A stretch of DNA of 64,000 nucleotides from Patescibacteria group bacterium. Its GTDB lineage: Bacteria; Patescibacteriota; Patescibacteriia; UBA10025; JAHIVO01. The position numbers and the translations under genes are program-made. The notes under the pieces are model-generated. The model was given only the letters and a program-made list of their open reading frames with translations. It made no database searches and was not told where the DNA came from. Of this stretch, positions 3,811-53,566 are shown piece after piece; the first letter of the stretch is position 1, and each line of letters begins with the position of its first letter. Where the stretch lies: NCBI GenBank assembly GCA_043808365.1, contig JAZDEZ010000021.1:403-64402 (forward strand). The letters are read 5' to 3'.

Positions 3811-3841
3811 CCTTCAGCACCTTGCGCCAATCGCACCCTTT

Positions 3842-3872
3842 CCCGCATGTATCCACCATGCGGGATTTTTTT
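3842..3872 (+). terminator. Rho-independent terminator
   Basis: Stem CCCGCATG / CATGCGGG followed by ATTTTTTT. Confidence 0.7.
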
Positions 3873-3910
3873 AATGAAAATGCACTTTTAATAATTTGAA
3901 AGATTTTTTT

Positions 3911-3942
3911 CCTTAGTTTTCGCCCGTAAAGCGAAATATAAT
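3911..3942 (+). promoter_or_regulatory. Shared upstream motif, copy 2 (CCTTAGTTTTCGC; TAGTTT-N17-TATAAT)
   Basis: The same 13-mer as at 1755. A perfect TATAAT lies at 3937-3942. AAAACAAAAAC lies exactly 26 nt after TAGTTTTCGCC. Confidence 0.55.
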
Positions 3943-3973
3943 TGAAACACAAAACAAAAACTGGAGGTGAGCC

Positions 3974-4114
3974 ATGAAAAATAGCTCTATAACCAAGCCT
4001 TCTGATACGGATAGTACAGATAAGGAAAAGCAACCGGAAGATCAGGACAACACTCCTGAACTTAAGTCACGTTATGATGACCCAAACTATTCACCAGATG
4101 GCACGGATTTCTAA
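3974..4114 (+). CDS. Small acidic hydrophilic protein (46 aa), not in the ORF track
   Basis: GGAGGTGA lies 3 nt upstream of the ATG (6 nt from the GGAGG core). Translation is MKNSSITKPSDTDSTDKEKQPEDQDNTPELKSRYDDPNYSPDGTDF. It has its own promoter-like motif upstream and a hairpin plus T-run downstream (about 4137-4165). Confidence 0.45.
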   Translation: MKNSSITKPSDTDSTDKEKQPEDQDNTPELKSRYDDPNYSPDGTDF

Positions 4115-4170
4115 CAATCCGGATCGATTATGCAAAAAAGCCTCGTCTTGCGGGGCTTTTTCTTTTACTT

Positions 4171-4202
4171 CCGTAGTTTTCGCCTACCCCACCCGATACC
4201 CT
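4171..4202 (+). promoter_or_regulatory. Shared upstream motif, copy 3 (CCGTAGTTTTCGC; TAGTTT-N17-TACCCT)
   Basis: 12/13 match to copies 1 and 2. AAAACAAAAAC again lies exactly 26 nt after TAGTTTTCGCC (4211-4221). Confidence 0.5.
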
Positions 4203-4413
4203 AAAGGTAGAAAACAAAAACCCTGTAAATAAAGGACTTTGACAACATAATAAGGAGGTGGTTATTGGCACTTCTGTTAACGTCGCGGAGTTGTTCGAAA
4301 AAACTAAAAAACCCCCATATTCCAGGAGGAAAATGTATGGAGGCTTTTTTATCCCCTCGCCAGCAATTAATAGTTTCTGAAATTCTCAACTTCAAAAAAT
4401 AGGAGAAAATGCC

Positions 4414-10976: not shown

Positions 10977-10985
10977 TTCCTCACC

Positions 10986-12986
10986 ATGAACGCTCAGAAA
11001 AAAAACCTACTGCTCATTTCCATTTTCTCTCTCATTTTTATTGTCGGCGTGTCATTGCCTTTCCTGACCCATGCGGCTGACGATACGGGCAGTGGTTTTG
11101 AATTTATCCCTCAGGAATGCACCGGCAACCAAGGCCCAGATGACCCTCCTTGCGATTTGAACTCCTTTGTTAATTTATTCGTCAACCTGGCGCAGGTGGC
11201 GCTCAAAGTCCTGCCCTTCCTGGCCATGCTCATGATGATCTGGGCCGGATTCAACCTGATTACCGCCGGCGGCAGCCCGGAAAAAATCCAGCAGGGCAAA
11301 AAAATGGTCACCTCCGTCGTGATTGGCGTCGTTATCGTCATTTTCCTGGCCTGGGGATTCGCCGCATTCGTTGTATCTACGCTGACATGTAATCCCCAGG
11401 ATCTGGCAGCAGGGAAGACATGCCTCGGTACAGTATTCCCAGGCTACGGCACCCCATTTGAAAAAGACTGGTGGGGCGGCGGCGAAGCTAACCCCAAACC
11501 CCCGAACTCCGGCTGCTGCGTCGTGGAATTCAGCGGGTGCAAAGAAGTCACGCAAACCGAGTGCACTTCCTGGAGTACGCTTTACGACGACGAGGTCCAG
11601 TTTATGGGCGAAAACGTATTCTGCTCCGAAGCCAAGGCAGTCTGTGAAAATTATACCAAAGGCTGCTGCGTACCGAACGATCCCACTGAAAAAACATGCT
11701 ACTGGCCGGACGCAAAGACGGGCTGTATCCCCTATCCGACGACTCAACATGACCCCACGGCCTGCAAGTATCTTGGCCAAAAATGCGACAAGGATAAAAT
11801 CCAAGGTGAAGGAACGGCAGACGAGGGCGTCACCGGCTGCTGCGTCCAGCTTTCAACCTGCTCCATGACAAAAATTGGCGACTGCCAGTCCGGAGGCACA
11901 TTCTTGCAGGGCAAAGACTGCTCTACTTCAGACGAGGGCAAGGACTCATGCGGCTCTGGCTGCTGTATCGGCAAGAATAGCTGTACAAAGGGCAAGGTCG
12001 GCTGTGACAGCAAACTCTGGGATCCTCAGGAATGCTCCAGCCTGACTAATGATTGTGAAACCAACTGTTGCGTTCAAGATCCGGGTGGCAATAACAACTG
12101 CTATGACAACACTACCCGGAGTTATTGCGGCTCCGTGCTCCAAGGTAATACGCAAGCTGTGCCTTGTTCATCAGTTCCTGTATGCACAAACGGATGTTGT
12201 GCAGAAACTTGTACCCCAGGAAATATTGATGGCGCTTGCACTGATTATACATATGTCAGCGGTACTGCCTGTAATGTCCTGCCAGAATGCCAAGGCGTCT
12301 GCTGCCTGTACGCCAACTCTCTTTCATGCTCATCGAATATTTTGACGAGGGATTGCCAGGATGCCGGTGATGTGATCATCCCCGGAGGTGCTCAATGCCC
12401 AACGGCCACTGACGAAACATGTGAGCAAGTCACCTGCTTAGAATCTGACAATGGCACCTGTCTGACAAAAGCAAGAAGGCTATGCGTAGCTCCAGACGTA
12501 ATAAACCCCGGGGGTGGCCTCTGCGATACCGGCTGCTGCTTTATCCCGAATGACGTCGCTTGCCACGACCAATATACCCGTGACCAATGCGGCCGAGCTA
12601 GTGGAACTTTTTCCCATAACACCTCCTGTTCAAAAGTCGATAACTGTAACGGCTGCTGCGTGAAAAAACATGACACCTACTCCTGTTCCGAGTCCTGGAC
12701 GCGCGGCCAATGTACGGCCGATAATGTCGCCAACACGTTTTATCCCGGAGACAAATGCACTGACGTCACTGAAGCTGGCCAAAAAGTGTGCACCGTCGGC
12801 TGCTGCCACTACTGCCTGAATAATGACTGCGTGGCCAATCCGGACATCTGCACCATGCTCTCGACGCAACAATATTGCTCAACCAGAGGCCCGGTGGTCG
12901 AATTCGTCCCCAATGATCCAGCCTGCTATGTCCTGCGGCATCGGGAGATAAACCCCATTCAATGCGATGTCGTAAACTCAAATTAA
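10986..12986 (+). CDS. TrbC/VirB2-like (T4SS-pilin-like) membrane protein fused to a ~490-aa cysteine-rich repeat domain
   Basis: Signal peptide. The pilin-like core is LPFLAMLMMIWAGFNLITAGGSPEKIQQGKKMVTSVVIGVVIVIFLAWGF. This is followed by 10 CC-containing modules (GCCV x4, GCCI, NCCV, GCCA, VCCL, GCCF, GCCH), each with downstream spaced single Cys residues. Confidence 0.7.
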   Translation: MNAQKKNLLLISIFSLIFIVGVSLPFLTHAADDTGSGFEFIPQECTGNQGPDDPPCDLNSFVNLFVNLAQVALKVLPFLAMLMMIWAGFNLITAGGSPEKIQQGKKMVTSVVIGVVIVIFLAWGFAAFVVSTLTCNPQDLAAGKTCLGTVFPGYGTPFEKDWWGGGEANPKPPNSGCCVVEFSGCKEVTQTECTSWSTLYDDEVQFMGENVFCSEAKAVCENYTKGCCVPNDPTEKTCYWPDAKTGCIPYPTTQHDPTACKYLGQKCDKDKIQGEGTADEGVTGCCVQLSTCSMTKIGDCQSGGTFLQGKDCSTSDEGKDSCGSGCCIGKNSCTKGKVGCDSKLWDPQECSSLTNDCETNCCVQDPGGNNNCYDNTTRSYCGSVLQGNTQAVPCSSVPVCTNGCCAETCTPGNIDGACTDYTYVSGTACNVLPECQGVCCLYANSLSCSSNILTRDCQDAGDVIIPGGAQCPTATDETCEQVTCLESDNGTCLTKARRLCVAPDVINPGGGLCDTGCCFIPNDVACHDQYTRDQCGRASGTFSHNTSCSKVDNCNGCCVKKHDTYSCSESWTRGQCTADNVANTFYPGDKCTDVTEAGQKVCTVGCCHYCLNNDCVANPDICTMLSTQQYCSTRGPVVEFVPNDPACYVLRHREINPIQCDVVNSN

Positions 12987-13028
12987 TATTGAATTATATT
13001 TTTATTTGATTATTTCCGGCCTAACTAT

Positions 13029-13415
13029 ATGAAAAAAAACATCCTGCTTCTCGCCGTCATCTTCACCCTGACCGCCATCTGGTCGGCCTCCGTCTTATTG
13101 TACCCCGTCCACGTGCAGGCCCAAGAATCCGAAACAACTGCGACCACGCCGTCATTGCCGAACCCTCTGGGTAAAAACGTCAATTTGGTAAAGGTAATAT
13201 TGCGCGTACTCCAGATCATCCTGGCCGCGGTGGATATTTTTGCCCTGTTCATGGTCATCCTGGGCGGGTTTGAATTCTTGATCTCCGCCGGCAACCCAAA
13301 CCTGGTAAAGAAAGCAAAAGACACGCTAGTCTGGGCGATTGTCGGAATTCTGGTCATTACGCTGAGCTATTCCATTTTAAAATTTATTTTCGAAGAAATT
13401 CAGAAAAAACTTTAA
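13029..13415 (+). CDS. TrbC/VirB2-like pilin-family small membrane protein
   Basis: Signal peptide plus the core IFALFMVILGGFEFLISAGNPNLVKKAKDTLVWAIVGILVITL. It is a paralogue of the N-terminal part of 10986..12986. Confidence 0.7.
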   Translation: MKKNILLLAVIFTLTAIWSASVLLYPVHVQAQESETTATTPSLPNPLGKNVNLVKVILRVLQIILAAVDIFALFMVILGGFEFLISAGNPNLVKKAKDTLVWAIVGILVITLSYSILKFIFEEIQKKL

Positions 13416-24137: not shown

Positions 24138-25625
24138 ATGCCAAACCTAACCAGACCATTGCGCATCGCTAGTGTCTCCTCTGAGGTCGCCCCGTATTCA
24201 AAAACAGGCGGGTTGGCTGATGTGGCAAAATCTCTGCCAAAAGCCCTGGCGGAAATGGGGCATCATATCGCGCTGATCACTCCATATTACGGATTCATCC
24301 ATAAACAACAGCTCGATCTAAAAAAGATCGAAGGCAAGGCGACAGTTGAAATCGGCAGGCAAAAACATGACCTAACCTTTTTACGGCTCGATTTCAATGA
24401 CCATCTAAAAATATACTTTATCGTAAACCAGGAGCTTTTTGGCCAGCATTCGCGGGTGTACAATTACGCGGATGATAATGTCCGCTTCCTGGCCCTTGAT
24501 TACGCCGCCCTCCAGCTGCTGGAAATCATCAAATTCAACCCGCATGTCATCCACTGCCAGGATTGGCAGTCCGGACTCATCCCCAATTTCCTTGTTAAAC
24601 GGGCTGGCGAATTTCCGTCCCTCGCAAAAGCCGCGACAGTATTCACCATCCATAACCTCGCCTACCAGTTGAGCTGCGACTGGTGGACCGTTCCGCCAGA
24701 CCGCGTTGATGACGGGAAATGCGACCCCATGAAGCGGCTCAAGGACATCAACTACTTCAATTTCGCCAAACGGGGGATTTTTTATTCCAACATCATCAGC
24801 ACGGTCAGTGAGCGCTATGCCGAGGAAATTACCACGCCGGAACACGGACAGGGCCTGGATCGATATTTGCGCCATAGGAAAAAAGACCTCTATGGAATCA
24901 TCAACGGCATAGACTACACGGTGAATAACCCCGCATTTGATGACAATATAAAATACAAATACGACTGGAACACGTTGCGGCGTAAAAAAAAGAACAAGAT
25001 CGAGCTCCAGCGCATCGTCAAGCTCGAACGCAATCCCGACATCCCTCTGATTGGCGTCGTCAACCGGCTGACCGAGCAGAAAGGCTTTAACCTGATCATG
25101 GAAACCATTGACGCCCTGCTCCGGCTGCAAATGCAGATGGTGATTATCGGCACCGGGCATAAGGAATATGTCGATTTCTTCAAAAAAATCGCCCGGAAAC
25201 ATCCAAAAAAAATCGGCTTCTATACGCCCTTTACCGAGGATATGGAATCGAAAATTTATGCCGGCTCGGACATGTTCCTGATGCCATCACGCTTCGAGCC
25301 GTGCGGCATTTCCCAGCTGAAAAGCCTGCGCTATGGGTCAATCCCCATTGTCCACGAAACCGGGGGACTGTCGGACACGATCACCAACTTCAGCCCCAAG
25401 ACGCGCAAGGGCAATGGTTTTACGTTTAAAATCTACAGCCGCGAAGACTTCCTGATTGCCCTGACTCGCGCCCTGGAAAACTACAAATATCCCCAAGTAT
25501 GGGAATTCATGACCTGGAATGCCATGCGCCAGACGTATTCGTGGCAGCTGCCGGCCAAAAAATACATCCAGCTCTTCCGGATCGCGATCAATAGCAAGCG
25601 CAAATACCTGCAACAACGCCACTAA
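24138..25625 (+). CDS. glgA: Glycogen/starch synthase (GT5), copy 1
   Basis: RIASVSSEVAPYSKTGGLADVAKSLPKAL, HCQDWQSG, FLMPSRFEPCGISQL. Confidence 0.9.
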   Translation: MPNLTRPLRIASVSSEVAPYSKTGGLADVAKSLPKALAEMGHHIALITPYYGFIHKQQLDLKKIEGKATVEIGRQKHDLTFLRLDFNDHLKIYFIVNQELFGQHSRVYNYADDNVRFLALDYAALQLLEIIKFNPHVIHCQDWQSGLIPNFLVKRAGEFPSLAKAATVFTIHNLAYQLSCDWWTVPPDRVDDGKCDPMKRLKDINYFNFAKRGIFYSNIISTVSERYAEEITTPEHGQGLDRYLRHRKKDLYGIINGIDYTVNNPAFDDNIKYKYDWNTLRRKKKNKIELQRIVKLERNPDIPLIGVVNRLTEQKGFNLIMETIDALLRLQMQMVIIGTGHKEYVDFFKKIARKHPKKIGFYTPFTEDMESKIYAGSDMFLMPSRFEPCGISQLKSLRYGSIPIVHETGGLSDTITNFSPKTRKGNGFTFKIYSREDFLIALTRALENYKYPQVWEFMTWNAMRQTYSWQLPAKKYIQLFRIAINSKRKYLQQRH

Positions 25626-25656
25626 TGGCTAATTTACTAACTACTAGCTACTAACC

Positions 25657-26883
25657 ATGCTGTGGGCGAATTTTTTCCATATTTACCAGCCGCCAGGCTG
25701 GCCGAAAAAAATCATTGACAAGGTCGTTCGCGAAAGCTATCGGCCAATATTGGCCATCCTCAAGAAATACCCCCGGCTAAAAATTACGCTCAATATAACC
25801 GGTTCACTGACCGAGCAGTTGGCCGCGCATGGTTTTCAGGACGTTATTAAAAACATACGCCAGCTCTCCCAGCAAGGCAAAATCGAACTGGTGGGGAGCG
25901 CCATGTATCACCCCATCCTGCCATTACTGCCGGAGCATGAGATCGAACGGCAAATCAGGCTCAATGACCAAATTAACGGAAAATACTTCGGTCCAATCTA
26001 TCGGCCAACGGGCTTCTTCCCCCCGGAAATGGCGTACGGCCCGGTGCTGAATAAAATAATTAAAAGGCACGGTTACCGCTGGCTCATCATTGACGAAATT
26101 GCATCGAATGGTTTCTTGGGGCAAGCCAGCTTTGATCGGACTCACTCGATCAAAGGTTCATCACTGCAGGTAATCTTCCGAAACCGGAAAGTAAGCGATT
26201 TCCTTTCATTCCAAAGCCATTTGGGGTCGACTGCCCATTTTTGGAAGACCGTGTCCGCTGATAACCGCAGCCGCATCGTCCTGGTCACGGGCATGGACGG
26301 CGAAAATCTCGGCCACCACCGGCCCGGGCTGGACTCCTACTGGGCCAAGCTGGCAACTCACGGCAGCGTGACCACGGTCACGGTAAGCGAATTGCTCAAG
26401 CAGATCGACCGGCGCCGTATTGTGGCTCCGCGCCAATGCTCCTGGTCCTCGCAAGAACGCGAGTTGAAACACCGTAACCCGTTCAGTTTGTGGCAGGACC
26501 CGACCAACCCGATCCACAAACTCCAGTGGAAAATGATCTATAATTTAATTAGCATCATCGAACAGCACAAATCCCACCCAAAATACGCCGAAGCCCGCCA
26601 AAACCTGGATAAGCAGCTGGCCTCAGACCAGATGTGGTGGGCCTCCGCCAAACCGTGGTGGAGCCTGGACATCATCACCAGGAAGACTAATGAGCTCTTC
26701 CAAACCGCGCTTTTCATGGAGCCGGGGAATCGCAGCTTAATCAGCCTGGCAGAAAAAATAATCAAGCAAGCAGCCGCCTGGCAGAAAAAAAATACTTACC
26801 TAACCATCGCCACAAAATATCTAGCTACAAACCGCCATGACAACATCCGCTACATTGGCGGGAAGAAGATCACCATAAGCTAG
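25657..26883 (+). CDS. Glycoside hydrolase family 57 protein, copy 1
   Basis: WANFFHIYQPP, the AMYHPILPLL pattern, and MDGENLGHH. Confidence 0.75.
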   Translation: MLWANFFHIYQPPGWPKKIIDKVVRESYRPILAILKKYPRLKITLNITGSLTEQLAAHGFQDVIKNIRQLSQQGKIELVGSAMYHPILPLLPEHEIERQIRLNDQINGKYFGPIYRPTGFFPPEMAYGPVLNKIIKRHGYRWLIIDEIASNGFLGQASFDRTHSIKGSSLQVIFRNRKVSDFLSFQSHLGSTAHFWKTVSADNRSRIVLVTGMDGENLGHHRPGLDSYWAKLATHGSVTTVTVSELLKQIDRRRIVAPRQCSWSSQERELKHRNPFSLWQDPTNPIHKLQWKMIYNLISIIEQHKSHPKYAEARQNLDKQLASDQMWWASAKPWWSLDIITRKTNELFQTALFMEPGNRSLISLAEKIIKQAAAWQKKNTYLTIATKYLATNRHDNIRYIGGKKITIS

Positions 26884-27316: not shown

Positions 27317-27369
27317 CGTACTAATTACTAAACTACTAACTACTAACTTACTAATAACTAACTACTAAC

Positions 27370-28752
27370 ATGTACTGGGCAAACTTCCTCCACATTTACC
27401 AGCCGCCGACACAGAAAAAAATCTGGGTGAAAAAAATCGCCGAGGAAAGCTACCGCAAAATCCTCCGCGGCATGAAAGCCAATCCGCGCGCCAAGATGAC
27501 GCTGAATATTAACGCCGTCCTGACCGAGCTGTTTGACCGGTTCGGATGCCTCGATGTCATTGCTGACATCAAGCTGCTCGCTGAACGAGGGCAAATCGAA
27601 CTCACTGCCAGCGCCAAATACCATCCGTTCCTGCCGATGATACCGAAAGAGGAAATCATCAGGCAGATTGAGCTGAACACCGTCACGAACCTGAAATATT
27701 TCGGGCCAAAAGCATACCACCCGAACGGGTTTTTCCCGCCGGAAATGGCTTACAGCCGACAGGTCGGAGAGATCATCGCCCAGCAAGGCTACAAATGGCT
27801 GATCCTGGACGAACTCGCCTACTCCGGAAAAATAAAGGATATTGACTGGACCCAGCTGTACACGCTCAAAGGGTATCCGGACTTTTTCGTCTACTTCCGC
27901 GAACGGGAAGCCAGCTTCCGCATCCTCTCGGCCCAGATCGGCATGAGCGTCTTTTCCGGCAGTATGCTGGTCAAACTGCTCGGTGACCGCGTCAACCGCG
28001 ACGAATACCTGATCACTGCCATGGACGGCGAAACATTCGGCCACCACCGGCCGGGACTGGAAGATCTCCTGTTTGATATGTACAACACGGAAGAACTGAA
28101 ATCAGTGACCCTGTCAGAACTGCCGGCCATCTTTACCAAGCACGCCGCCATCGACCCGCGCTCGTCATCCTGGGCGCTCATGAAGAAAGACATAGAAGAC
28201 AACACCCCGTTCTCCCGCTGGATGGACAAGGACAATGTCATCCAAACCATGCAATGGGAGCTGACCAACCTGGCGATTAATGCCATTAAGCTCATTAAAC
28301 CGACTGACCCGATCTACGCAAAAATCCGCGGTGAACTGGACGAAGCCATCCATTCTGACCAGTACTGGTGGGCTTCGGCCATGCCATGGTGGAGCATAGA
28401 AATGATTGAGATGGGCGCCAAAGATTTGAAAGGCGTGGTGCAGGACTCCCCCGTACCGCCGGACATAAAACAAAAAGCCCAAGAACTGTACCAAAACATA
28501 ATCTTCACCGCATTTGAGTGGCAGCGCAGCGGCAAAGTGGATGTCATGGCCAAGTCGGCGGATGAAGACGTTACCCAGCGCATTACCACCGACATGCCGT
28601 ACATCCCCGAATCGGAATTCAATAAGATTGTCGGCAACCTAGCCAAACAGATGCTGGAAGCGGCCAAAGCGCAGGAATACGAGCGCGCCGCCCAGATCCG
28701 CAATCGGGTGAAGGAATTGAACGATAAAAAAGACCAAATTACAAGAAAATAA
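27370..28752 (+). CDS. Glycoside hydrolase family 57 protein, copy 2, with a C-terminal UVR-like motif
   Basis: WANFLHIYQPP and MDGETFGHH. The C-terminal LAKQMLEAAKAQEYERAAQIRNRVKEL matches the UvrB/UvrC UVR helix pattern. Confidence 0.75.
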   Translation: MYWANFLHIYQPPTQKKIWVKKIAEESYRKILRGMKANPRAKMTLNINAVLTELFDRFGCLDVIADIKLLAERGQIELTASAKYHPFLPMIPKEEIIRQIELNTVTNLKYFGPKAYHPNGFFPPEMAYSRQVGEIIAQQGYKWLILDELAYSGKIKDIDWTQLYTLKGYPDFFVYFREREASFRILSAQIGMSVFSGSMLVKLLGDRVNRDEYLITAMDGETFGHHRPGLEDLLFDMYNTEELKSVTLSELPAIFTKHAAIDPRSSSWALMKKDIEDNTPFSRWMDKDNVIQTMQWELTNLAINAIKLIKPTDPIYAKIRGELDEAIHSDQYWWASAMPWWSIEMIEMGAKDLKGVVQDSPVPPDIKQKAQELYQNIIFTAFEWQRSGKVDVMAKSADEDVTQRITTDMPYIPESEFNKIVGNLAKQMLEAAKAQEYERAAQIRNRVKELNDKKDQITRK

Positions 28753-29761: not shown

Positions 29762-31230
29762 CTAACCCACTCAAAATCCTATTCGTTGCCGCTGAACTGA
29801 ACCCGATCGCTAAAGTCGGCGGCCTGGCTGACGTGACCGGCGCCCTGCCGATTGCCCTGAAAAAATTAGGCGTTGATGTCCGCATCGTCATCCCGAAATA
29901 CGGCATTGTCGACGAAAAAAAATATCCGTTTACCAAAGTCGCAGACAACGTCGAGGTGCCATTTAATCATGCCGTAGAAAAAATATCCATTTACTCCACA
30001 CCGCTCCCCGGCACGAACATCCCCGTTTACCTTCTCGACCATCCGGAATACCTGGGTGGCGGCGGCATCTATATCGAACCGGATGCCTCCTCGAACGGCT
30101 CAATCAAGGAAGCCCACAGATTCTTATTTTTATCCCGTGCCTGCTTAGCGATATGCGATCCGCTTGATTGGTACCCGGACGTCATCCATAGCCATGACTG
30201 GCATGTCGGCATGGTGCCGGTCTTGGTAAAAATCCTCGGCCGCAAAAACAAGCGGTTAGCATCTGCAAAAACAATCCTCACTATCCACAACCTGGAATAC
30301 CAGGGCTGGTATCCAACAGAGGTGATTATGGACGCGCTTGGTTTGGCTGGCGGAGAGTACCCGACGCTGGCAGAACGCCGTAACGCCCACATGTCCACCC
30401 TCCAACAAGCCATCCTGGCCTGCGACCTCATGACGACGGTCAGCCCGTCATATGCCAAAGAGATCCTTACCCCCGAATACGGATCGACGCTTGATCCGCT
30501 CCTGGCGCCGCGGCGCGATAAATTGATCGGGGTTTTGAATGGCATTGACGTCGCTCGTTTCAATCCGGCGACAGATAAGGATATTATTGCGAATTTTTCC
30601 GCTGACGACCCGACCAACAAGCTGCCATGCAAAGCCGACTTGCAGAAAGTCTGTGGACTCTCGGTCAATCCAAAAATCCCCATCCTCGGCGTCGTCACCC
30701 GCTTTGCCGAACAAAAAGGCATGGACCTAATCTGTTCCCTGAGTGAAGAATTGGCCGCATTCGATATCCAATTAATCATGCTGGGCACCGGCCTGCCGCC
30801 GATCGAAGCCGCGGTCAAAAAAATGGTGGCTGCCCATCCGGATATCTTCTATGCGAAAATAGCTTTTGACGCGCCATTAGCCCAAAAAATTTATGCCGGA
30901 TCGGACCTGTTTCTGATGCCGTCGAAATTCGAGCCGTGCGGCTTGGCCCAGATGATTTCCATGCGTTACGGCACTGTCCCGGTAGTCCGCGCCACCGGCG
31001 GGCTGATTGATACGGTCAAGGATTTCAACCCCGAATCGAAAGAAGGCGATGGCTTTGTTTTCAACGCCTTTGACGCCAAAGAACTGTCGGCCGCCATAAA
31101 AAGGGGGCTGGCGCTTTATCAGGACTCTGAAACGTGGTATAAAATAGTCAGGCGCATCATGCAAAATGATTTTTCCTGGAACAATTCCGCTGAAAAATAT
31201 CTCAAATTATATCAACAATTAGCCCCATAA
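29758..31230 (+). CDS. glgA: Glycogen/starch synthase (GT5), copy 2
   Basis: KILFVAAELNPIAKVGGLADVTGALPIAL, HSHDWHVG, FLMPSKFEPCGLAQM. Confidence 0.9.
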   Translation: MTNPLKILFVAAELNPIAKVGGLADVTGALPIALKKLGVDVRIVIPKYGIVDEKKYPFTKVADNVEVPFNHAVEKISIYSTPLPGTNIPVYLLDHPEYLGGGGIYIEPDASSNGSIKEAHRFLFLSRACLAICDPLDWYPDVIHSHDWHVGMVPVLVKILGRKNKRLASAKTILTIHNLEYQGWYPTEVIMDALGLAGGEYPTLAERRNAHMSTLQQAILACDLMTTVSPSYAKEILTPEYGSTLDPLLAPRRDKLIGVLNGIDVARFNPATDKDIIANFSADDPTNKLPCKADLQKVCGLSVNPKIPILGVVTRFAEQKGMDLICSLSEELAAFDIQLIMLGTGLPPIEAAVKKMVAAHPDIFYAKIAFDAPLAQKIYAGSDLFLMPSKFEPCGLAQMISMRYGTVPVVRATGGLIDTVKDFNPESKEGDGFVFNAFDAKELSAAIKRGLALYQDSETWYKIVRRIMQNDFSWNNSAEKYLKLYQQLAP

Positions 31231-33466: not shown

Positions 33467-34363
33467 ATGGCTAGATATACGCTCGGAGTAGATATCGGGG
33501 GCACTAAAATCCAGACCGGTCTCGTAAACCGGCATGGCCGGGTTTCGGCCAGTAAAAAATTTCCTCTGGACCGGCGGAATAAAACCACAGCCCTGGACAG
33601 CATTATTGAGAGCATCCGATCAACCTTTATCAGGCACAAAGTGACTGCAATCGGCATCGGCATTACCGGACTGGTTGATTATAAAAAAGGCGTGGTCGAA
33701 GCCAGCCCCAACCTGCCCCGCTCGTGGAAAAAAGTCCCGCTTAAAAAAATTATCGGGCGGTTATTCCATGTGCCGGTATATGTTGATAATGACGCGCACT
33801 GCTTTTCGCTAGGCGCGGCCCATACGGGCATCGGTAAAAAATACCCGGTCGTGATGGCGCTAACGCTGGGAACGGGCATCGGCGCCGGGCTGGTGATAAA
33901 CGGCCGGTTGTACCGAGGCAAGCTTAACGTCACGGAATTCGGCCACACGACGGTCGCCGACCATTCGCCTCGGTGCAGTTGCGGACGTACCGGCCACCTG
34001 GAAGCGCTGATCTCGGGACAGGCGATGAGCGCGCTATACAGGCAATTCAGCGGGCGGCGCTTAGACGCATTCGCGATCGAAGCCGCGGCAAAACACGGCA
34101 ACCGGGCCGCGCGGCGAACCATCGGCACCATGTCCCATTTCTTGGCCATCGGGCTGGCTAACGCGATCCATTCGTATAATCCGGATTTGCTTGTTATCGG
34201 CGGAGGACTCTCCAGAGTCAAACTATTGACCAGGCCGTCTATCCGGAAGGCCCGCTCCCTCCTGCTGTACCCGCCGCTCAAAGAAACGAAAATAGTTACC
34301 GTAAAAGACCTAACGGAAGCGAACGTGGCCGGCGCCGCCCTTATTTGCACCCACTCATCGTAA
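33467..34363 (+). CDS. ROK family kinase (glucokinase-like)
   Basis: LGVDIGGTKI, VDNDAHC, and a Cys-rich zinc motif GHTTVADHSPRCSCGRTGHLE. Confidence 0.85.
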   Translation: MARYTLGVDIGGTKIQTGLVNRHGRVSASKKFPLDRRNKTTALDSIIESIRSTFIRHKVTAIGIGITGLVDYKKGVVEASPNLPRSWKKVPLKKIIGRLFHVPVYVDNDAHCFSLGAAHTGIGKKYPVVMALTLGTGIGAGLVINGRLYRGKLNVTEFGHTTVADHSPRCSCGRTGHLEALISGQAMSALYRQFSGRRLDAFAIEAAAKHGNRAARRTIGTMSHFLAIGLANAIHSYNPDLLVIGGGLSRVKLLTRPSIRKARSLLLYPPLKETKIVTVKDLTEANVAGAALICTHSS

Positions 34364-34365
34364 CT

Positions 34366-36981
34366 ATGCCCATCCCACCCTTGCGCGAACCGAATTTCCG
34401 CATAAAAAGAATTGGCGCCCGGGTAGTCGACACTATCCGCTCTCAGCACCGCCATCCCAAACGCTGGCGCCGAATCATCGCTCGCCTGTGGCCGATAGCG
34501 GGCGTCTTGGTCGTGCTTGGGGTTGTTGGCATGGTCATTATGTTTGCCATAATATCCAGGGACTTGCCAGACCCAAACAAGGTCATTGACAGGACCGTCG
34601 CCCAAAGTACGAAGATTTACGCCCGGGACGGCACCACGCTGCTCTACGACATCCACGGCGAGCAAAAAAGGACGGTAATCCAATTATCGGACATTCCAGA
34701 CGACATGAAGCACGCCACCATCGCGATTGAGGACAAAGATTTCTATAACCACCACGGATTCTCGCTGGGCGGCATTGCCAAAGCGGTCTGCCACGAGGTA
34801 ATCGGCAATTTCGGCGGCCTGTGCCCGCCGCGCGGCGGATCAACCATCACCCAGCAATTCGTCAAGAATTCCATCTTGACCTCGCAACGCTCTTATATCC
34901 GAAAAATTAAAGAATTGGTGCTGTCATACCAGCTGGAAAAAAGGTTTTCCAAAGACCAGATCCTCCAGCTCTACCTCAACGAGATCCCTTATGGATCCAA
35001 TTCCTACGGCATCGAATCGGCCAGTCAGACATTTTTTAACAAGCGAGCCAAGGACCTGACATTGGCCGAGTCCGCATTGCTGGCGGCCATGCCGCAGTCA
35101 CCGTCATATTACTCGCCGTACGGCAACCATACCGAAGACCTCGTCAGCCGGCAGCACCTGGTTCTGAAAGTAATGGTTGAGCAGAACTACGTCACCCAGG
35201 AGCAGGCCGACGCGGCAAAAGCGGTGGATATATTGGCGCAAGTCAAACCGAAAAGCGACAATATCGTGGCCCCCCACTTCGTCATGTATGTCAAAGAGTT
35301 GCTGGCGGCAAAATTCGGGGAAAAAGAAGCTGAACAAGGGGGGTTCAAGATCATCACCACCATAAATATCGACAAGCAACGCGTCGCCGAAGAGGTGGTG
35401 ACGAAATACGCCGACAAGAACGCCGCGAAGTACAACGCTTCCAATGCCGCCCTGGTATCACTGGATACGAAGACTGGCCAAATCCTGGCCATGGTCGGTT
35501 CAAAAGATTATTTCAACACGGAAATTGACGGCAACGTCAACGTCACCCTGCGCCCGCGCCAGCCTGGGTCGTCATTCAAGCCGATCGTGTACGCGACGGC
35601 CTTTAAACAGGGTTACACGCCGGAAACGGTTCTCTTTGACCTGGTCACGAACTTTGCCACTGATTCAGGCAAAGACTACACCCCGCATAATTACGATTCA
35701 AAAGAACATGGCCCCGTATCGATTCGCCAAGCACTGGCCGGATCACTGAACATCCCAGCTGTTAAAACCTTGTATCTGACGGGAATAAAAAACGTCTTGG
35801 CGACGGCAAAGGATCTCGGCTACACCACCCTGAACGATCCGAGTCGGTTTGGCCTTTCGCTGGTCTTGGGCGGCGGGGAAGTGACGCTCCTGGAGCATAC
35901 CTCGGCATTTGCCACATTCGCCCGGGAAGGCATCAGGCATCCGGTCGCGGCCATATTGCGCATTGAAGATAACAAGGGCAAGGTGCTGGAACAGTTCCAA
36001 AACCGCGAAGAAAAAGTTCTGGACGAAAACGTCGTCCGGCTGCTTAACAGCGTCTTATCGGATAACGAAGCGCGCGCGTATATTTTCGGGTCGAAAAACT
36101 ACCTCACCCTGCCGGACCGGCCGGTCGCCGCGAAAACCGGCACGACCAACGACTACCGCGACGCCTGGACCATCGGGTACACGCCGTCAATCGCTACCGG
36201 CGTCTGGGTCGGCAACAATGACAACTCGGAAATGAAGCGCGGGGCCGACGGCTCAATCGTGGCCGCGCCGATATGGAACGAGTACATGAAACGCACCGTC
36301 GGCGGCCCGTCCGAACCTTTCAAAGCGCCAAAACCCAACTCATCCGCCAAGCCGATCCTGCAGGGGAAAATCGGCAGCGACATCAAATACTCGGTTGATT
36401 TATTCACCGGAAAAATTATTCCAGATAAATGCCTGGAAACTTACCCGGAAGCGTTTGTTACGCAAAAATCTTTCAAGATCGTCCACGACATCCTTTTCTA
36501 CGTCAATAAAGACGAACCAGCCGGTCCAGCGCCCGCTGACCCGACAAAAGATCCCCAATACGCGCGCTGGGAAGAGCCGGTCCAGCGCTGGGCTGTGGCC
36601 AACAAATACCTGGATAGCGCCCTGCAGTACGAGTCGTGCGACCTGCGCTCGTCCGCGAATTCGCCGGTCGTGACATTTACGTCTCCGGTTTCGGGCACGA
36701 CTGTCTCCTCCAGTACGTTTACGATTGAAGCTGCGGCTACCGGACCGCAAACCATAAAGTCAATGACGTACTATCTTGACGACGTCCAAATCGGTACGGT
36801 CAGCGCCTCACCGTTCATATTCACGTATACGGCAACTACGGAATTAATCAGCGGCTTCCACGACCTCAAAGCCGTGGCCTCAGACGCGATTGCCAATACC
36901 GGGTCAACGACTGTAACGATCAACTACCTGCCGCCGCAAGCCCCGGCTCCCGTTGATACGAACACTGCTCCGGCGCAATAG
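34366..36981 (+). CDS. Class A penicillin-binding protein (transglycosylase/transpeptidase) with a C-terminal Ig-like domain
   Basis: IAIEDKDFYNHHGF and GGSTITQQFVKN (GT51). The SSFKP and KTGTT motifs (transpeptidase). The ATG at 34366 is preferred to the TTG at 34345. Confidence 0.9.
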   Translation: MPIPPLREPNFRIKRIGARVVDTIRSQHRHPKRWRRIIARLWPIAGVLVVLGVVGMVIMFAIISRDLPDPNKVIDRTVAQSTKIYARDGTTLLYDIHGEQKRTVIQLSDIPDDMKHATIAIEDKDFYNHHGFSLGGIAKAVCHEVIGNFGGLCPPRGGSTITQQFVKNSILTSQRSYIRKIKELVLSYQLEKRFSKDQILQLYLNEIPYGSNSYGIESASQTFFNKRAKDLTLAESALLAAMPQSPSYYSPYGNHTEDLVSRQHLVLKVMVEQNYVTQEQADAAKAVDILAQVKPKSDNIVAPHFVMYVKELLAAKFGEKEAEQGGFKIITTINIDKQRVAEEVVTKYADKNAAKYNASNAALVSLDTKTGQILAMVGSKDYFNTEIDGNVNVTLRPRQPGSSFKPIVYATAFKQGYTPETVLFDLVTNFATDSGKDYTPHNYDSKEHGPVSIRQALAGSLNIPAVKTLYLTGIKNVLATAKDLGYTTLNDPSRFGLSLVLGGGEVTLLEHTSAFATFAREGIRHPVAAILRIEDNKGKVLEQFQNREEKVLDENVVRLLNSVLSDNEARAYIFGSKNYLTLPDRPVAAKTGTTNDYRDAWTIGYTPSIATGVWVGNNDNSEMKRGADGSIVAAPIWNEYMKRTVGGPSEPFKAPKPNSSAKPILQGKIGSDIKYSVDLFTGKIIPDKCLETYPEAFVTQKSFKIVHDILFYVNKDEPAGPAPADPTKDPQYARWEEPVQRWAVANKYLDSALQYESCDLRSSANSPVVTFTSPVSGTTVSSSTFTIEAAATGPQTIKSMTYYLDDVQIGTVSASPFIFTYTATTELISGFHDLKAVASDAIANTGSTTVTINYLPPQAPAPVDTNTAPAQ

Positions 36982-37150
36982 TTTTCTCGCTTAATGACTG
37001 ACTGTAATTGGTGGGAGTAAAGCGAATATTTAACGTCGCCAAACACAATATAAAAAACCATCTTGTTCGTATAATAAACAGTTTTGTGCAATATTACTCA
37101 GAGCCTTCTTTATACGAAAGAATTAAATACTTTATAACTAATCTAAAATC

Positions 37151-37429
37151 ATGGAACCCCCGTATATTTTAATTTCAATATTAGCCTTGTTAATAATTTT
37201 GATTGTAGTCTATTTTGTGATAGGTAAAAAAAGACGTTTAAAGGATAATCCATGGAGCTATCTTAATAAGATTCAATTTATAGCGGGAATTTGTATTGCA
37301 CTAATTGGAGCTGGAATAATGTTTTATGGAAACATCTTTGGAGAAAGGAACTCTGGCATTGCTACAATTATAGGAATAATTGGAATAGGATTGATAGCTA
37401 CATCTTATAGATTCAGATTGCTTAAATAA
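37151..37429 (+). CDS. Small membrane protein (3 predicted TM segments), AT-rich
   Basis: 92-aa ORF with three hydrophobic stretches. No clear RBS. It lies in a visibly AT-rich stretch. Confidence 0.4.
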   Translation: MEPPYILISILALLIILIVVYFVIGKKRRLKDNPWSYLNKIQFIAGICIALIGAGIMFYGNIFGERNSGIATIIGIIGIGLIATSYRFRLLK

Positions 37430-37489
37430 AAAAGGCACCTGCGTCATACTGTCGGTCGCTTCGCTCCCTCGTTCGCCTTGCAGGCTCAC

Positions 37490-37556
37490 CACATAACAGC
37501 GTCTATACGCCATTCCACTTCGCTCCACAGCGCATGAGACGCGGACGTTGTATGGC
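37490..37556 (+). repeat. Direct repeat copy A (internally palindromic ~70-80-bp element)
   Basis: It shares exact blocks with copy B: AACAGCGTCTATACGCCAT (37495-37513), CTTCGCT, ACAGCGCATGAGACGC (37527-37542) and ACGTT. GCGTCT and AGACGC form an internal inverted repeat. Confidence 0.85.
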
Positions 37557-37642
37557 ATGCATTTTTATTAATAATAATTTACCATTACGCTTGCTTTGGA
37601 TTTTAACTTCTCCAAAACCAATACTCTTTCCTTTTTTTGAGA

Positions 37643-37690
37643 TAAAAAAATCCCCCGCACCAACTCTTTTTGTAGAGAGCCAGTGCGGGG
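37643..37690 (-). terminator. Rho-independent terminator of the 153-aa gene
   Basis: Stem CCCCGCAC / GTGCGGGG. A minus-strand T-run follows (plus-strand aaaaaaat at 37644-37651). Confidence 0.7.
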
Positions 37691-37742
37691 ATACGAACCT
37701 GACTGCCGTCAGGCAGGCTAAGTGGCAAAGCGCCGAAGCGCT

Positions 37743-38204
37743 TTATATGCGGTGAAGCACCTGAAGGGCGGCGCGCCAGTTGTTGAGAGTCCAGTCCCAG
37801 AGCTGAACCCAGCGGTCATCTTTCCAGTAGACACAAGCCATGCCCCCGGGATCATTAGGGAAGCGCCAGTCCGTGAAGACGAATACGACCTTGCCCCGCA
37901 GAACTTCCGGGATTTCTTCCTGGTGATCCAGGAGGTGCTGGCCATCGTCCTGGCCCAAATTCGCCTGCATCTCCTTCACGTGCTCAATTATCGTTGATCT
38001 TGGCACTTTTTTCTCGTCTCCCCGCAGGAAGCCAAGAATCTCGTACGTGCGGCCGGCGATGGTCATAGTGGTTGGTAATCCGTCTTTCACTAAGCCACTG
38101 GCGAATTGACGAACGGCTTCGGTGTTATCGGAGCTGACCAATGCGTTGAAAAGATTATCTCCTAGCTCGCGCTGTAAATGCGACGCTGATCGAAGAGTGT
38201 CCAT
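37743..38204 (-). CDS. Hypothetical cytoplasmic protein (153 aa)
   Basis: GAGGAGG lies 7 nt upstream of the ATG, and the gene has its own terminator. No recognisable motifs. Confidence 0.6.
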   Translation of the reverse strand: MDTLRSASHLQRELGDNLFNALVSSDNTEAVRQFASGLVKDGLPTTMTIAGRTYEILGFLRGDEKKVPRSTIIEHVKEMQANLGQDDGQHLLDHQEEIPEVLRGKVVFVFTDWRFPNDPGGMACVYWKDDRWVQLWDWTLNNWRAALQVLHRI

Positions 38205-38447
38205 TGCTCTACCTCCTCATATGAGAAAGAGTTCTCCTCGCCGGTATTGGCAAAGAGGAAAGCCGATCTGTTTATGGCCTTCTCCGTATGTGTATTTAAT
38301 GTATTAATACAAAGCACGGAAAAAGCCACAAACAACTGAAAAGAACTAATGCAACAGTATATCACTTCCGACAGAAATGTCAAGCGTTGCTCGAAAGTGA
38401 TTTACTTACTGTAAGCGTATTGGTAAAATATATATAGGATAAATGCA

Positions 38448-38530
38448 CATCATACAACAGCGTCTATACGCCATCATCCTTCGCTAAAGCTTCGGACGAC
38501 AGCGCATGAGACGCAAACGTTAGACGTTAC
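38448..38530 (+). repeat. Direct repeat copy B
   Basis: The same exact blocks as copy A, at 38456-38474 and 38499-38514. The central part is longer. Confidence 0.85.
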
Positions 38531-38585
38531 GCAACTTACACACAAGAGCCAAATCAAACATACATTGCGACAAGGCAACAATATT

Positions 38586-38627
38586 CAAAAACAAAACAGG
38601 ACGGAATCTCTTCCGCCCTGTTTTTTA
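38586..38627 (-). terminator. dnaN terminator (bidirectional-looking hairpin)
   Basis: Stem CAGGGCGGA / UCCGUCCUG (a G-U pair occurs only in the minus-strand RNA), with T-runs on both strands. Confidence 0.75.
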
Positions 38628-38664
38628 TATTTCTCACTAATTACAAATCACTAACTACTAGTGG

Positions 38665-39768
38665 CTATTGCTTAATCGGCATGATAATGTAGACATAGTC
38701 GCCGTCCTTTTCCGGCTTGATCAGGCCTGGGCTGAGGTTTGAATTTATTTCAATGACGCAGTTAGATGAGTTAAGGTTTTGCAGGCCGTCAAGCAAGAAC
38801 CGGTAATTGAACACGATATGGTTTTCATCGCCCTCGATAGTCGCTTCCTGCACCGCTTCGCTTTCGCCAACCTGGGCGTTAGTGGTATTCACCGTGATCT
38901 GTCCGGCTGATTTTTCGAACTTCAAGACAATGTCATTGCCGCCCGGCTTGCAAAACAGGCTGGCCCGTTTGACGGTATTAATAAACTCCTGGGTATCGAC
39001 GGTGATCTTCGTCCGGTACTCTTTGGGGATGATTTGCTGATAATCAGGGTATTGGCCCTCGATGACGCGCGAGGTCAGTTTGGTCTCGCCTAGGTCAAAT
39101 AATATTTGATTTTCATTGCAGACAATAGCGACGGGGTCATTATAATCACCCAAGATTCGCACTAATTCCTGGATGGTCCGGATTGGAACGATGACATTGT
39201 GCTGGCTGGCCGCCGGCTTGGATAGAGCGACTTTCTTCTCCGCCAGACGGTAGCTGTCCGTCGCCACCGCAACGAGATTGCCTCCCTCAAAATTAAAATA
39301 TACGCCGCTGATTTCCGGCCGCGTCTCGTCATACGCCACGGCAAATGCCACGTTTGACAGCGCCCGGCGCAAGGTTTCGGCGGGAATTTCAAATTTTTGC
39401 TTGGCATCAACCTCGGGAATCAAGGGGAATTCCGAAGCCTCCAGGCCCTTCATGACCGTCTTGGACTTCTTCCCCTTTATCTTCATGCTTTGGTCAACCA
39501 CCTCGATTTCAATATTTTCTTTTGGCAGTAAATTCACGTAATCACTCAGGGTCTTGGCCTGCACGGTAAAGGCCCCTTCTTTTTCCACTTTGCCGCGCAC
39601 CTGGCAAATAATGCCAATTTCAAGGTTTGTGGTGAGAAGTTTAATAACACCCTGCTCGGCGCGGATCAAAACATTGTTTAAAATCGGCAGGGTAATATTT
39701 TTGCTGGCCACATGACTGACCAAAGAAAGGCCTTTTGTTAAATTTTCCTGCGTGCATATTACTTTCAT
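38665..39768 (-). CDS. dnaN: DNA polymerase III beta sliding clamp
   Basis: 367 aa. MKVICTQENLTKGLSLVSHVAS..LPILNNVLI is a typical N-terminus. The gene lies directly downstream of dnaA. Confidence 0.9.
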   Translation of the reverse strand: MKVICTQENLTKGLSLVSHVASKNITLPILNNVLIRAEQGVIKLLTTNLEIGIICQVRGKVEKEGAFTVQAKTLSDYVNLLPKENIEIEVVDQSMKIKGKKSKTVMKGLEASEFPLIPEVDAKQKFEIPAETLRRALSNVAFAVAYDETRPEISGVYFNFEGGNLVAVATDSYRLAEKKVALSKPAASQHNVIVPIRTIQELVRILGDYNDPVAIVCNENQILFDLGETKLTSRVIEGQYPDYQQIIPKEYRTKITVDTQEFINTVKRASLFCKPGGNDIVLKFEKSAGQITVNTTNAQVGESEAVQEATIEGDENHIVFNYRFLLDGLQNLNSSNCVIEINSNLSPGLIKPEKDGDYVYIIMPIKQ

Positions 39769-53457: not shown

Positions 53458-53566
53458 GTCGCCCCTCTTACTCTTCCACTGTCATTCTGAGCGTAGCGAA
53501 GAATCTTTATTCTGTTTTACTATAGGATCCTTCGACTTCGCTCAGGATGACAAAGAGAGGGGCGAC
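53458..53566. repeat. Long imperfect palindrome (REP-like element / terminator) downstream of the HAD gene
   Basis: The left arm GTCGCCCCTCT..TGTCATTCTGAGCGTAGCGAAGAATC pairs with the right arm GATCCTTCGACTTCGCTCAGGATGACA..AGAGGGGCGAC. The outer 11 bp are perfect. Confidence 0.85.

Follow-up and report, generated by a model that had tools for sequence, protein, structure and literature searches.

Why should a Patescibacteria group bacterium carry, in the gap between the gene for a penicillin-binding protein (PBP) and dnaN, two copies of a short and internally complementary repeat, set in the same orientation on either side of a gene for a protein of 153 amino acids (aa)? The question is raised by a stretch of 64,000 nucleotides (nt) from contig JAZDEZ010000021.1 of assembly GCA_043808365.1, which was analysed as a whole and is called the window throughout, and in which an earlier note, made from the letters alone, had likened the pair to the attC sites of integrons. 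Our answer is that the repeats are very probably attC-like recombination sites belonging to an integron-like cassette system of Patescibacteria, and that two cassettes of this system have been inserted between the convergent PBP and dnaN genes. In particular, the repeats appear to function like attC and yet are not canonical attC sites; the system is a new, integron-like variant, which appears to be widespread in the ultra-small Patescibacteria, the candidate phyla radiation (CPR).

To begin with the repeats themselves, they are as real as they had seemed. A repeat search found direct repeats at 37484-37549 and 38445-38521, both on the + strand, sharing the exact blocks of 19, 7 and 16 nt that had been reported: for the 19-mer AACAGCGTCTATACGCCAT the window has two occurrences where 0.01 would be expected, for the 16-mer ACAGCGCATGAGACGC two where 0.38 would be, and the 7-mer CTTCGCT is also common to both copies; the remainder of the 64 kb contains no other copy. 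Site 1, or copy 1, spans 37489 to 37555 on the + strand and reads CCACATAAC-A-GCGTCTATACGCC...GCGCATGAGACGC-GGAC-GTTGTATGG, while site 2, or copy 2, spans 38450 to 38527 on the same strand, 961 bp away, and reads TCATACAAC-A-GCGTCTATACGCC...GCGCATGAGACGC-AAAC-GTTAGACGT. The internal pairing described by the earlier note is likewise present, namely GCGTCT with AGACGC, CGC with GCG and AAC with GTT. Judged by folding energy alone the symmetry is weak (z of about 0 for copy 1 and -2.8 for the bottom strand of copy 2); the stem in the sub-family to which the two copies belong contains one bulged base, a G on the top strand and a C on the bottom one, as well as one A.C/T.G mismatch, and it is because of these that the bottom strand folds better. 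A T-arm-like sequence near 37690 was considered as an att site derived from a tRNA fragment and was rejected, ARAGORN giving no tRNA there. As for the large palindrome at 53465-53565, whose arms contain GTCATTCTGAGCGTAGCGAAGAATC and GATCCTTCGACTTCGCTCAGGATGAC, its supposed kinship with the repeats comes down to the CTTCGCT 7-mer, which we attribute to chance, the two being otherwise unrelated; motifs of this type are common in metagenomic and CPR genomes.

Could such elements simply be parts of structured RNAs? Copy 2 would then be the 5' portion of a small RNA that starts at a promoter (38401-38429) and stops at the terminator at 38593-38624, or else the copies would stabilise messages as parts of 3' untranslated regions (UTRs). 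There is something to this, in that a promoter-like site (9/12 consensus matches) and a terminator do lie around copy 2, a variable terminal hairpin stands between conserved blocks, and the related elements in three other loci (L010, L012 and L014 in our numbering, explained below) are co-oriented with the flanking genes. However, the Rfam 15 covariance models gave no match in the window at gathering scores and, at E <= 10, nothing on the repeats except a 17.6-bit chance match to P26. What is more, the genes downstream of the elements are mutually unrelated, it is the bottom, that is antisense, strand that folds better than the sense strand, and an RNA would leave unexplained the insertion, the rule linking neighbouring sites and the strain breakpoints that are described in the following paragraphs. 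We consider an RNA function of this kind extremely unlikely.

The insertion becomes apparent when the window is compared with its relatives (comparison loci and contigs are labelled L001 to L079 here, L012 and L017 being one and the same). The left flank is a gene for a PBP1A-type penicillin-binding protein (34345-36981, + strand; Pfam Transgly, Transpeptidase and Big_7) and the right flank is dnaN (38665-39768, - strand; Pfam DNA_pol3_beta domains); both are ancestral, and the gap between them measures 1683 bp. In L065, L066 and L067, where DnaN is 96% identical to that of the window, the same two genes are convergent and lie 64 bp apart, and at 67-69% DnaN identity the gap is 55 bp in L068 and 53 bp in L069-L071. 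Every empty-site relative has a single terminator between the two genes, five related loci being counted. The window possesses this terminator as well: the bidirectional one at 38593-38624, common to PBP and dnaN, aligns with the empty-site terminator of L065 and L066, and is thus ancestral and outside the insertion. In the alignment of the window with the empty site, homology ends at the PBP stop codon and picks up again just before this terminator. Since the homology breaks and resumes in this way across a gap of only 53-64 bp, about 1.6 kb, from 36982 to approximately 38555-38575, was inserted between PBP and dnaN in the lineage of the window. The island so defined, 36982-38575 with an uncertain right end between 38520 and 38575, holds two cassettes. 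The comparison of synteny that the earlier note had recommended thus came out in favour of an insertion, with a gap that is empty in five related loci and a cassette that is not conserved in all relatives. Its description of the island as AT-rich applies to the 92-aa open reading frame (ORF) and the spacers (GC 0.28-0.40), but not to the 153-aa ORF (GC 0.55-0.58). At the right end of the island, 38553-38580 is about 60% like 36954-36981, the last ~25 nt of the PBP gene; the two share no identical core, and the likeness may reflect either an old target duplication or a chance match.

Are the two sites on their own, or do they belong to a larger family? When public genomes and metagenomes were scanned with the 19-mer and an 18-mer, members of what we call the 19-mer sub-family were found in L009, L010, L012/L017, L014 and L016, each of them directly 3' of a co-oriented ORF and each keeping both conserved blocks around a central hairpin that differs. 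One clear member, L009 (contig CAZJUO010000053.1), is binned as a gammaproteobacterial metagenome-assembled genome (MAG), and a partial one, L011 (CAJOHU010000011.1), as an alphaproteobacterial MAG; either the contigs are mis-binned or such sites exist outside Patescibacteria. A scan of viral contigs with a 15-mer gave 36 matches, all of them discarded as chance, as the remaining parts of the element were missing from every one. A covariance model of the sub-family, R2, scores site 1 at 80.6 bits and site 2 at 76.2 bits, both being among its training sequences, and its weak matches elsewhere, once inspected, led to divergent sites of identical architecture. This architecture consists of an outer box TC-N4-AAC, a single A, an 11-bp stem with a central TAT, a loop, the returning stem, 3-5 nt and the closing box GTT-N4-GA. 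The inner stem measures 11-12 bp, the terminal loop anything from 6 to about 150 nt, the 3-5 nt of the 3' spacer are mostly NAAC or ATAC, and the N4 of the outer box is specific to each cassette. Across the family the inner stem changes with pairing kept, GCGTCT/AGACGC being replaced by CGGCATATCTG/CAGATATGCCG, CCGAGTATGCG/CGCATACTCGG, AAGTATATGAG/CTCATATACTT and others.

The window copies fit this pattern closely, if not perfectly. Namely, copy 2 departs from it in its last base (GT for GA), copy 1 has CC for TC and GG for GA, and both have the TAT together with ATGA, that is, one inserted G, in place of ATA. A second model, R3, was built from ten array sites, none of them from the 19-mer sub-family, and the window was searched with it with filters off. 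Its best two matches in the entire 64 kb are site 1 (15.2 bits, E 0.16) and site 2 (15.1 bits, E 0.17), the latter being a local alignment of the 3' half only (38492-38527); on the sub-family members in L012 and L014 the same model reaches E = 3e-5 and 3e-4. Simple pattern scans were treated with caution: loose patterns, allowing 6-bp stems or G-T pairs, match about as often in shuffled sequence and were not used, whereas a strict pattern gave 13 matches against 0-6 in shuffles. The pattern evidence considered here is limited to this strict scan and to the neighbour rule, to which we now turn.

In several loci the sites form arrays. L012, a contig of 9.5 kb, has 7 co-oriented sites with one co-oriented ORF per interval, the cargo comprising a 129-aa protein, an 87-aa protein, a GNAT protein, a 240-aa protein and a 653-aa methyltransferase, while the array in L014 has 3 sites and that in L072 at least 3. 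Here neighbouring sites are linked by a simple rule: the closing 9-mer of a site, reverse-complemented, gives the opening 9-mer of the site after it. All nine positions agree at 5/6 junctions of L012 and at both junctions of L014. In L072 they agree between an attI-like motif (discussed below) and the first site and again between the first and second sites, the next junction agreeing at 7/9, and in L079 at two junctions, one of which starts at the attI-like site. This makes 11 junctions at 9/9 (5 in L012 and 2 each in L014, L072 and L079), to which L075 adds one more at 9/9 and three at 8/9. With 3 of the nine positions fixed and 6 free, the chance probability of a 9/9 match is about 2.4e-4 per junction. 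Read from the sequences, the rule is the signature to be expected if cassettes form circles and cross over at G|TT. Namely, because the crossover would fall between G and TT, the TT-N4-GA that follows a site would belong to the next cassette, and in the circular form it would pair with that cassette's own site.

The same logic holds in the window. Site 1 ends in the 8 nt GTTGTATG and site 2 begins with the 8 nt CATACAAC, and the two are exact reverse complements of each other; over nine positions the reverse complement of TCATACAAC at the start of site 2 agrees with GTTGTATGG at the end of site 1 at 8/9; by comparison, the cis pairing within each copy over the 8-nt box is poorer (6/8 and 5/8). 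Moreover, and this the earlier note had missed, a stretch of 46 nt on the right of copy 1 shows 76% complementarity with an equally long one on the left of copy 2. The right arm (37547-37592) and the left arm (38413-38458), both given on the + strand, make up an extended palindrome of the cassette in the form of an inverted repeat. Leaving out the 8-nt box, the arms match at 27/38 positions, whereas 200,000 random AT-rich pairs averaged 10.5 and never exceeded 25 (empirical p < 5e-6). Assuming a crossover at G|TT, the single cassette of about 950 bp that had been proposed between the repeats becomes a unit of 972 bp, 37548-38519, which begins at the TT of site 1, ends at the G of site 2 and carries the 153-aa gene antisense. 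When its ends are joined, the hypothetical circular junction folds as a hairpin of about 150 nt, with -37 kcal/mol on the bottom strand (z = -6.4) and -29.1 kcal/mol on the top strand (z = -4.0). In the mechanism that we propose, a cassette would leave the chromosome in circular form, its two ends coming together into one complete palindrome, and would then go back in through site-specific recombination, crossing over at G|TT. The first cassette of the window would consist of the gene for the 92-aa membrane protein followed by site 1, and the second of the 972-bp unit with its own promoter, its gene of the variable-protein family discussed below and then site 2, and their insertion next to dnaN would be ectopic. 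The likely catalyst would be a 270-aa tyrosine recombinase related to IntI and Xer and encoded elsewhere than in the window.

Closely related strains differ at precisely the points that this mechanism would predict. L072 and L073, which are strain variants, are 100% identical through ...GCCGAAACGTTA and unrelated beyond. L076-L079 share the same recombinase protein and a common murD side; on the other side their identity extends through ...CGTATAAAAACGAGTTAT, the shared stretch ending at ...CATCGTATAAAAACGAGTTAT, after which they continue into different cassettes with different genes. These breakpoints fall exactly at GTTA. In L077 and L078 a PALP cassette abuts the attI-like point, and in L079 an extra 259-aa cassette stands in between, with a site of its own that obeys the neighbour rule at 9/9. 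L076 has sites at 684-876 and 2762-2849 on the + strand, opposite to the strand expected, and its attI-like junction lies near 4340 on the - strand; the segment in between has the 9-mer GTTATACGC at either end, in inverted orientation, suggesting that recombination between inverted sites has flipped it.

It is at this point that one can weigh another possibility, of which the earlier note had named the REP form, namely that the repeats are intergenic palindromes of the repetitive extragenic palindromic (REP), bacterial interspersed mosaic element (BIME) or terminator-like kind, which have no role in recombination and flank the ORF by chance. They are indeed short palindromes placed 3' of genes, and copy 1 folds no better than shuffled sequence. 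Yet a dispersed repeat should be scattered, and these are not: there are two copies only in 64 kb, both within the inserted island, and R2 and R3 find no sites in about 40 kb of syntenic core DNA of the relatives L065, L068 and L069. We reject an unrelated REP family because the copies are confined to the inserted island or to cassette arrays, and because the island itself is absent from the relatives. Nor would it account for the neighbour rule at 9/9 in 11 junctions or for strains that break exactly at GTTA, and the complementarity of the 46-nt flanks is inexplicable by independent copies of one repeat. All in all, we judge it very unlikely.

If the repeats are recombination sites, what would act on them? 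A 270-aa tyrosine recombinase adjoins the arrays and is transcribed divergently from them, the arrays starting about 110 nt upstream, and the divergent side of the recombinase gene carries sites of the family architecture in 5/5 independent loci examined. The protein scores 231 bits, above the cut-off, on NCBIfam NF040815 ('site-specific tyrosine recombinase/integron integrase'), and 231 bits, in two stretches and below the cut-off, on the integron integrase model TIGR02249, as against 187 bits for XerC and 184 bits for XerD. It is 34% identical to IntI1 over the full length, with a 49-residue gap exactly at the insertion that is specific to IntI1. At 108-125 nt upstream of its ATG, three distinct genomes (L072, L075 and L076-L079) have the attI-like motif ATA(A/G)AAACGA|GTT, and in L072 the sequence after this motif, GTTGTACGA, pairs at 9/9 with the first site. 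In other words, a fixed primary site of the attI kind is found in related loci outside the window: it is there that strains diverge, and there that L079 has its extra proximal cassette. Among Xer-related recombinases, Smyshlyaev et al. 2021 (PMC8138268) distinguish a 'Cand' subgroup that comes from candidate phyla, and the 270-aa family may correspond to it.

Are these, then, simply the attC sites of a classical integron, whose IntI carries the I2 domain and of which the window would have kept a true cluster of attC sites lacking integron integrases (CALIN)? Several features point that way. Both window copies have the outer AAC at the 5' end and GTT at the 3' end, as do all family members except L010 and L016. 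Three members end in GTTAGAC, GTTAGAT or GTTAGGC, all of which fit the R' consensus GTTRRRY, the 3' end ...CAAACGTTAG is like that of the aac(6')-Ib attC, and the cassette logic holds. In the window, copy 2 fits R' with GTTAGAC, copy 1 has GTTGTAT, and at R'' (RYYYAAC) ACATAAC and ATACAAC are each off by one position. However, the geometry is different. The earlier note had seen two paired boxes parted by unpaired spacers, which is not what the sites possess: what parts the R box from the L box is a lone A in the 5' half and the 4 nt GGAC or AAAC in the 3' half, with pairing restored immediately beyond, resulting in a 1 x 4-nt loop, as opposed to the unpaired spacers of 5 x 5-6 nt in the attCs of aadA1, aac(6')-Ib, arr-3, blaPSE and blaVIM. 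Similarly, of extrahelical bases the window sub-family has a single bulge, and most sites of the broader family have none, their 11-bp stems being perfect.

The attC covariance model that we used on this point, R1, was home-made from six class-1 plasmid attCs (aadA1, aadA2, aac(6')-Ib, arr-3, blaPSE and blaVIM-4). Its own attCs are recovered at 38-59 bits, and one site from outside the training set at E = 0.01; blaPSE is weak and dfrA16 is missed, for which reason R1 must be regarded as a weak, over-fitted and narrow test. Within this limit it gives no match at the window copies, its best match in the window (10.2 bits) being elsewhere, nor at the array sites of L012, L014, L072, L075 and L079, and R2 and R3 in turn give no match on real attCs. 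By the earlier note's own criterion, a failed attC search together with many scattered copies would have pointed to a REP-like family; the first half came about, if only by a weak model, but the second did not. Finally, the adjacent recombinases have no IntI insertion, and a tblastn search with IntI1 found no match in the window. What survives of the attC-like geometry is the likeness in function, and what does not is canonical membership, given the R1 result, the 1 x 4-nt loop and a neighbouring recombinase without the IntI domain; we regard a classical integron as the source of these sites as quite unlikely. CALINs, as defined by IntegronFinder (PMC4889954), have at least two attC sites within 4 kb and no integrase. 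With two sites 961 bp apart, the window cluster is fairly described as CALIN-like, because no tyrosine recombinase is encoded in the window, provided that the sites count as attC equivalents.

Leaving canonical attC aside and returning to an integron-like system of Patescibacteria, it is instructive to set it beside the known ones. With integrons it shares co-oriented arrays in which one ORF is followed by an imperfect palindromic site, AAC...GTT ends with a cassette-specific outer box, a G|TT crossover whereby each site's start pairs with the preceding site's end, the entry of new cassettes at a fixed site beside a divergent IntI-related tyrosine recombinase, and the occurrence of site clusters without an integrase. 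It differs in its asymmetric loop of 1 x 3-5 nt, where attC has an unpaired spacer of about 5 x 5-6 nt; in its inner stem of 11-12 bp, which is usually perfect and free of extrahelical bases, the window sub-family having one bulge and one mismatch; in its 9-bp outer box with fixed TC/GA; and in its recombinase, which at 270 aa has no I2 insertion. The lack of extrahelical bases and the lack of I2 may well go together. Namely, the I2 helix of IntI reads the extrahelical bases, and the acquisition of I2 is thought to have enabled single-strand recombination (PMC7790495), so that a recombinase without I2 and hairpins without bulges would make a coherent pair. The same source reports that the attP(+) of the CTX phage, folded as a single-strand hairpin, mimics a duplex core site for XerCD, and a similar use of hairpins would fit sites that lack extrahelical bases. 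The recombinase is also Xer-like in being short and arm-less and in being highly conserved in the phylum, and some sources label it XerD. In contrast, we recognised no site with the 11-6-11 layout of dif, the integron-integrase model gives the recombinase a higher score than the XerC and XerD models do, and integrative mobile elements exploiting Xer (IMEX) integrate at a single chromosomal dif site and form no arrays of exchangeable single-gene cassettes.

That said, a number of points weigh against the explanation we favour. The 5' boundary of the first cassette breaks the neighbour rule, the expected GTTATGTGG not being found near 36982-37150, and to the right of site 2 about 35-55 nt are left over that have no assigned origin. 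The R3 scores of the two window sites are each marginal when taken singly, and covariation within the 19-mer sub-family was discarded as uninformative because the search pattern had required an identical 5' half. The 64-kb window contains no tyrosine recombinase gene, so that the earlier note was right in seeing no integrase there. What is more, the recombinase family, which has more than 6000 homologues at E < 1e-40, shows strong conservation, its members from different CPR phyla being 60-65% identical, and because of this conservation the protein may be, or may also be, a housekeeping dimer resolvase. We infer that the 270-aa recombinase is the catalyst, that its substrate would be a folded single strand, as for attC and the CTX phage, although duplex DNA may serve instead, and that cassettes would come out as circles. 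One further observation concerns the AT-rich left part of the island, where a hairpin TCGTATAAT...(34 nt)...TTTATACGA at 37060-37117 gives a weak R3 match of 8.7 bits. Apart from one change in each, the arms look like the outer box TC-N4-AAC / GTT-N4-GA, and TTATACGA is identical to a cassette start in L072; judging by these resemblances, the hairpin may be a decayed site.

What do the cassettes carry? The cargo of the first is a predicted membrane protein of 92 aa (37151-37429, + strand; GC 0.28), which has weak transmembrane-type Pfam matches only. Its gene is co-oriented with site 1, which begins 59 nt past the stop codon, and this layout of an ORF and then a site is the same as in the L012 and L014 arrays. 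The 153-aa gene of the second cassette (37743-38204, - strand) is better furnished. It has a promoter-like site at 38356-38383 on the - strand, consisting of TTGACA, 16 nt and TGnTATACT, with 11/12 consensus matches. This is followed by a structured 5' leader (38234-38344, - strand), made up of a hairpin CTCTTTGCC-loop-GGCGAGGAG at 38234-38257 and a long AT-rich hairpin at 38262-38344, and after the gene there is an intrinsic terminator with a 16-bp stem and then a T run (37652-37691, - strand). Having its own promoter, leader, Shine-Dalgarno sequence and terminator, the gene is a self-contained unit. Five homologous loci all have the leader motif TTCCTCTTTGCC...GGCGAGGAG without any change, and the leader of this protein family may be an undescribed cis-regulatory RNA. 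Copies of it lie elsewhere at 3972-3999 and 4776-4803 in L001 and at approximately 3940-3965 in both L004 and L005; there is also a second pairing, TTTCTC...GAGGAG, near the Shine-Dalgarno sequence, and the 3' UTR has conserved CTTGG-type repeats.

The protein itself, which had been taken for an orphan, is no such thing: it has 115 homologues, and all those labelled with an organism are from Patescibacteria/CPR or from plain 'bacterium'; an NCBI entry assigned to a 'Patescibacteria group bacterium' shares its sequence at 100%. It matches no Pfam or NCBIfam family; its AlphaFold model has a pLDDT of 88, and a Foldseek search of this model against the PDB returned no significant neighbour, the top weak matches being to C-type-lectin-like folds. 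In L072, two tandem paralogues have C-terminal variable repeats (VRs) of 124 nt that match a template repeat (TR) beside genes for bAvd and a reverse transcriptase (RT), and the differences between TR and VR fall at TR adenines in 9/11 and 15/16 cases. Because these VRs match the TR and differ from it nearly always at its adenines, the 153-aa family is, on the strength of sequence comparison, one of variable (target) proteins of diversity-generating retroelements (DGRs) of Patescibacteria, and its leader would accordingly be one of DGR target genes. The likeness to known DGR targets concerns the cargo only and comes from the L072 paralogues, in which adenine-specific variation is seen; the window copy differs in that there is no RT, bAvd or TR within the 64 kb, and neither its fold nor its sequence significantly matches solved DGR targets. 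The complete DGR of L072, at 10001-13201 (equal to 4001-7201 of L001), comprises bAvd, RT, the TR at 11673-11796 and the two tandem targets, and, together with a Fic gene, DGR and targets lie inside a single 5-kb cassette between two attC-like sites. The integron-like cassette of L072 would accordingly make a DGR mobile.

The nature of this cargo also bears on whether the repeats might be the ends of a small transposon, either an IS200/IS605-type insertion sequence with sub-terminal hairpins or an element with 46-bp terminal inverted repeats, the 153-aa protein being the transposase. Two similar hairpin elements in the same orientation do flank an ORF of about 150 aa, and the 46-nt arms are inverted. 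But the ORF matches neither Y1/HUH nor any other transposase family in Pfam and NCBIfam, and belongs instead to a family of DGR variable proteins. Its homologous loci L004 and L005 keep the gene, the leader and the 3' UTR but have neither the repeats nor the inverted arms, for which reason the 153-aa ORF was rejected as a mobile unit in itself, and elsewhere the sites occur in arrays with unrelated cargo (GNAT, methyltransferase, PALP and Fic). To transposon ends we give hardly any credence. In L004, a 153-aa homologue with leader and terminator (3600-4741) is flanked by the two genes of a NiFe hydrogenase, that for the small subunit and that for the large one, which is unusual for a unit transcribed on its own; no attC-like site came to light in that segment.

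Taken more broadly, an integron-like cassette system in Patescibacteria would matter for several reasons. Integrons are defined by an IntI with an I2 domain and by attC sites with extrahelical bases, and a recombinase without I2 that is paired with bulge-free hairpins under integron logic bears directly on the origin of integrons. A large part of bacterial diversity is accounted for by the CPR bacteria, whose genomes are tiny, and to our knowledge few mobile elements have been described in them; the arrays would provide them with a gene-capture system. The site pattern and the attI-like motif, in turn, allow one to mine the CPR accessory gene pool from metagenomes. No report of integrons or cassette arrays in Patescibacteria was found in the full-text searchable literature, subscription-only articles being outside its scope, and the system seems so far undescribed. 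One can go a step further and suppose that Patescibacteria broadly carry a distinct and so far unrecognised class of chromosomal integron, with a 270-aa recombinase without I2, an ATARAAACGA|GTT attI-like site and attC-like hairpins that have neither the unpaired spacer nor extrahelical bases. Such a class would capture single-gene cassettes and even a whole DGR, would be missed by current integron finders, and would represent either an ancestral state before I2 or an independent invention from the Xer of the phylum. This wider proposal we put forward tentatively, as a possibility that deserves serious attention without our quite expecting it to hold in full.

Two other repeat-bearing regions of the window may be mentioned. 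Inside an 866-aa ORF (4414-7014), internal tandem repeats at 5614-6156 have periods of ~135 nt and 267-270 nt and an identity of 82-84%. Between 24138 and 31230, paralogous segments, such as 25251-25421 and 30886-31056 or 25656-25694 and 27369-27407, indicate a cluster of duplicated genes.

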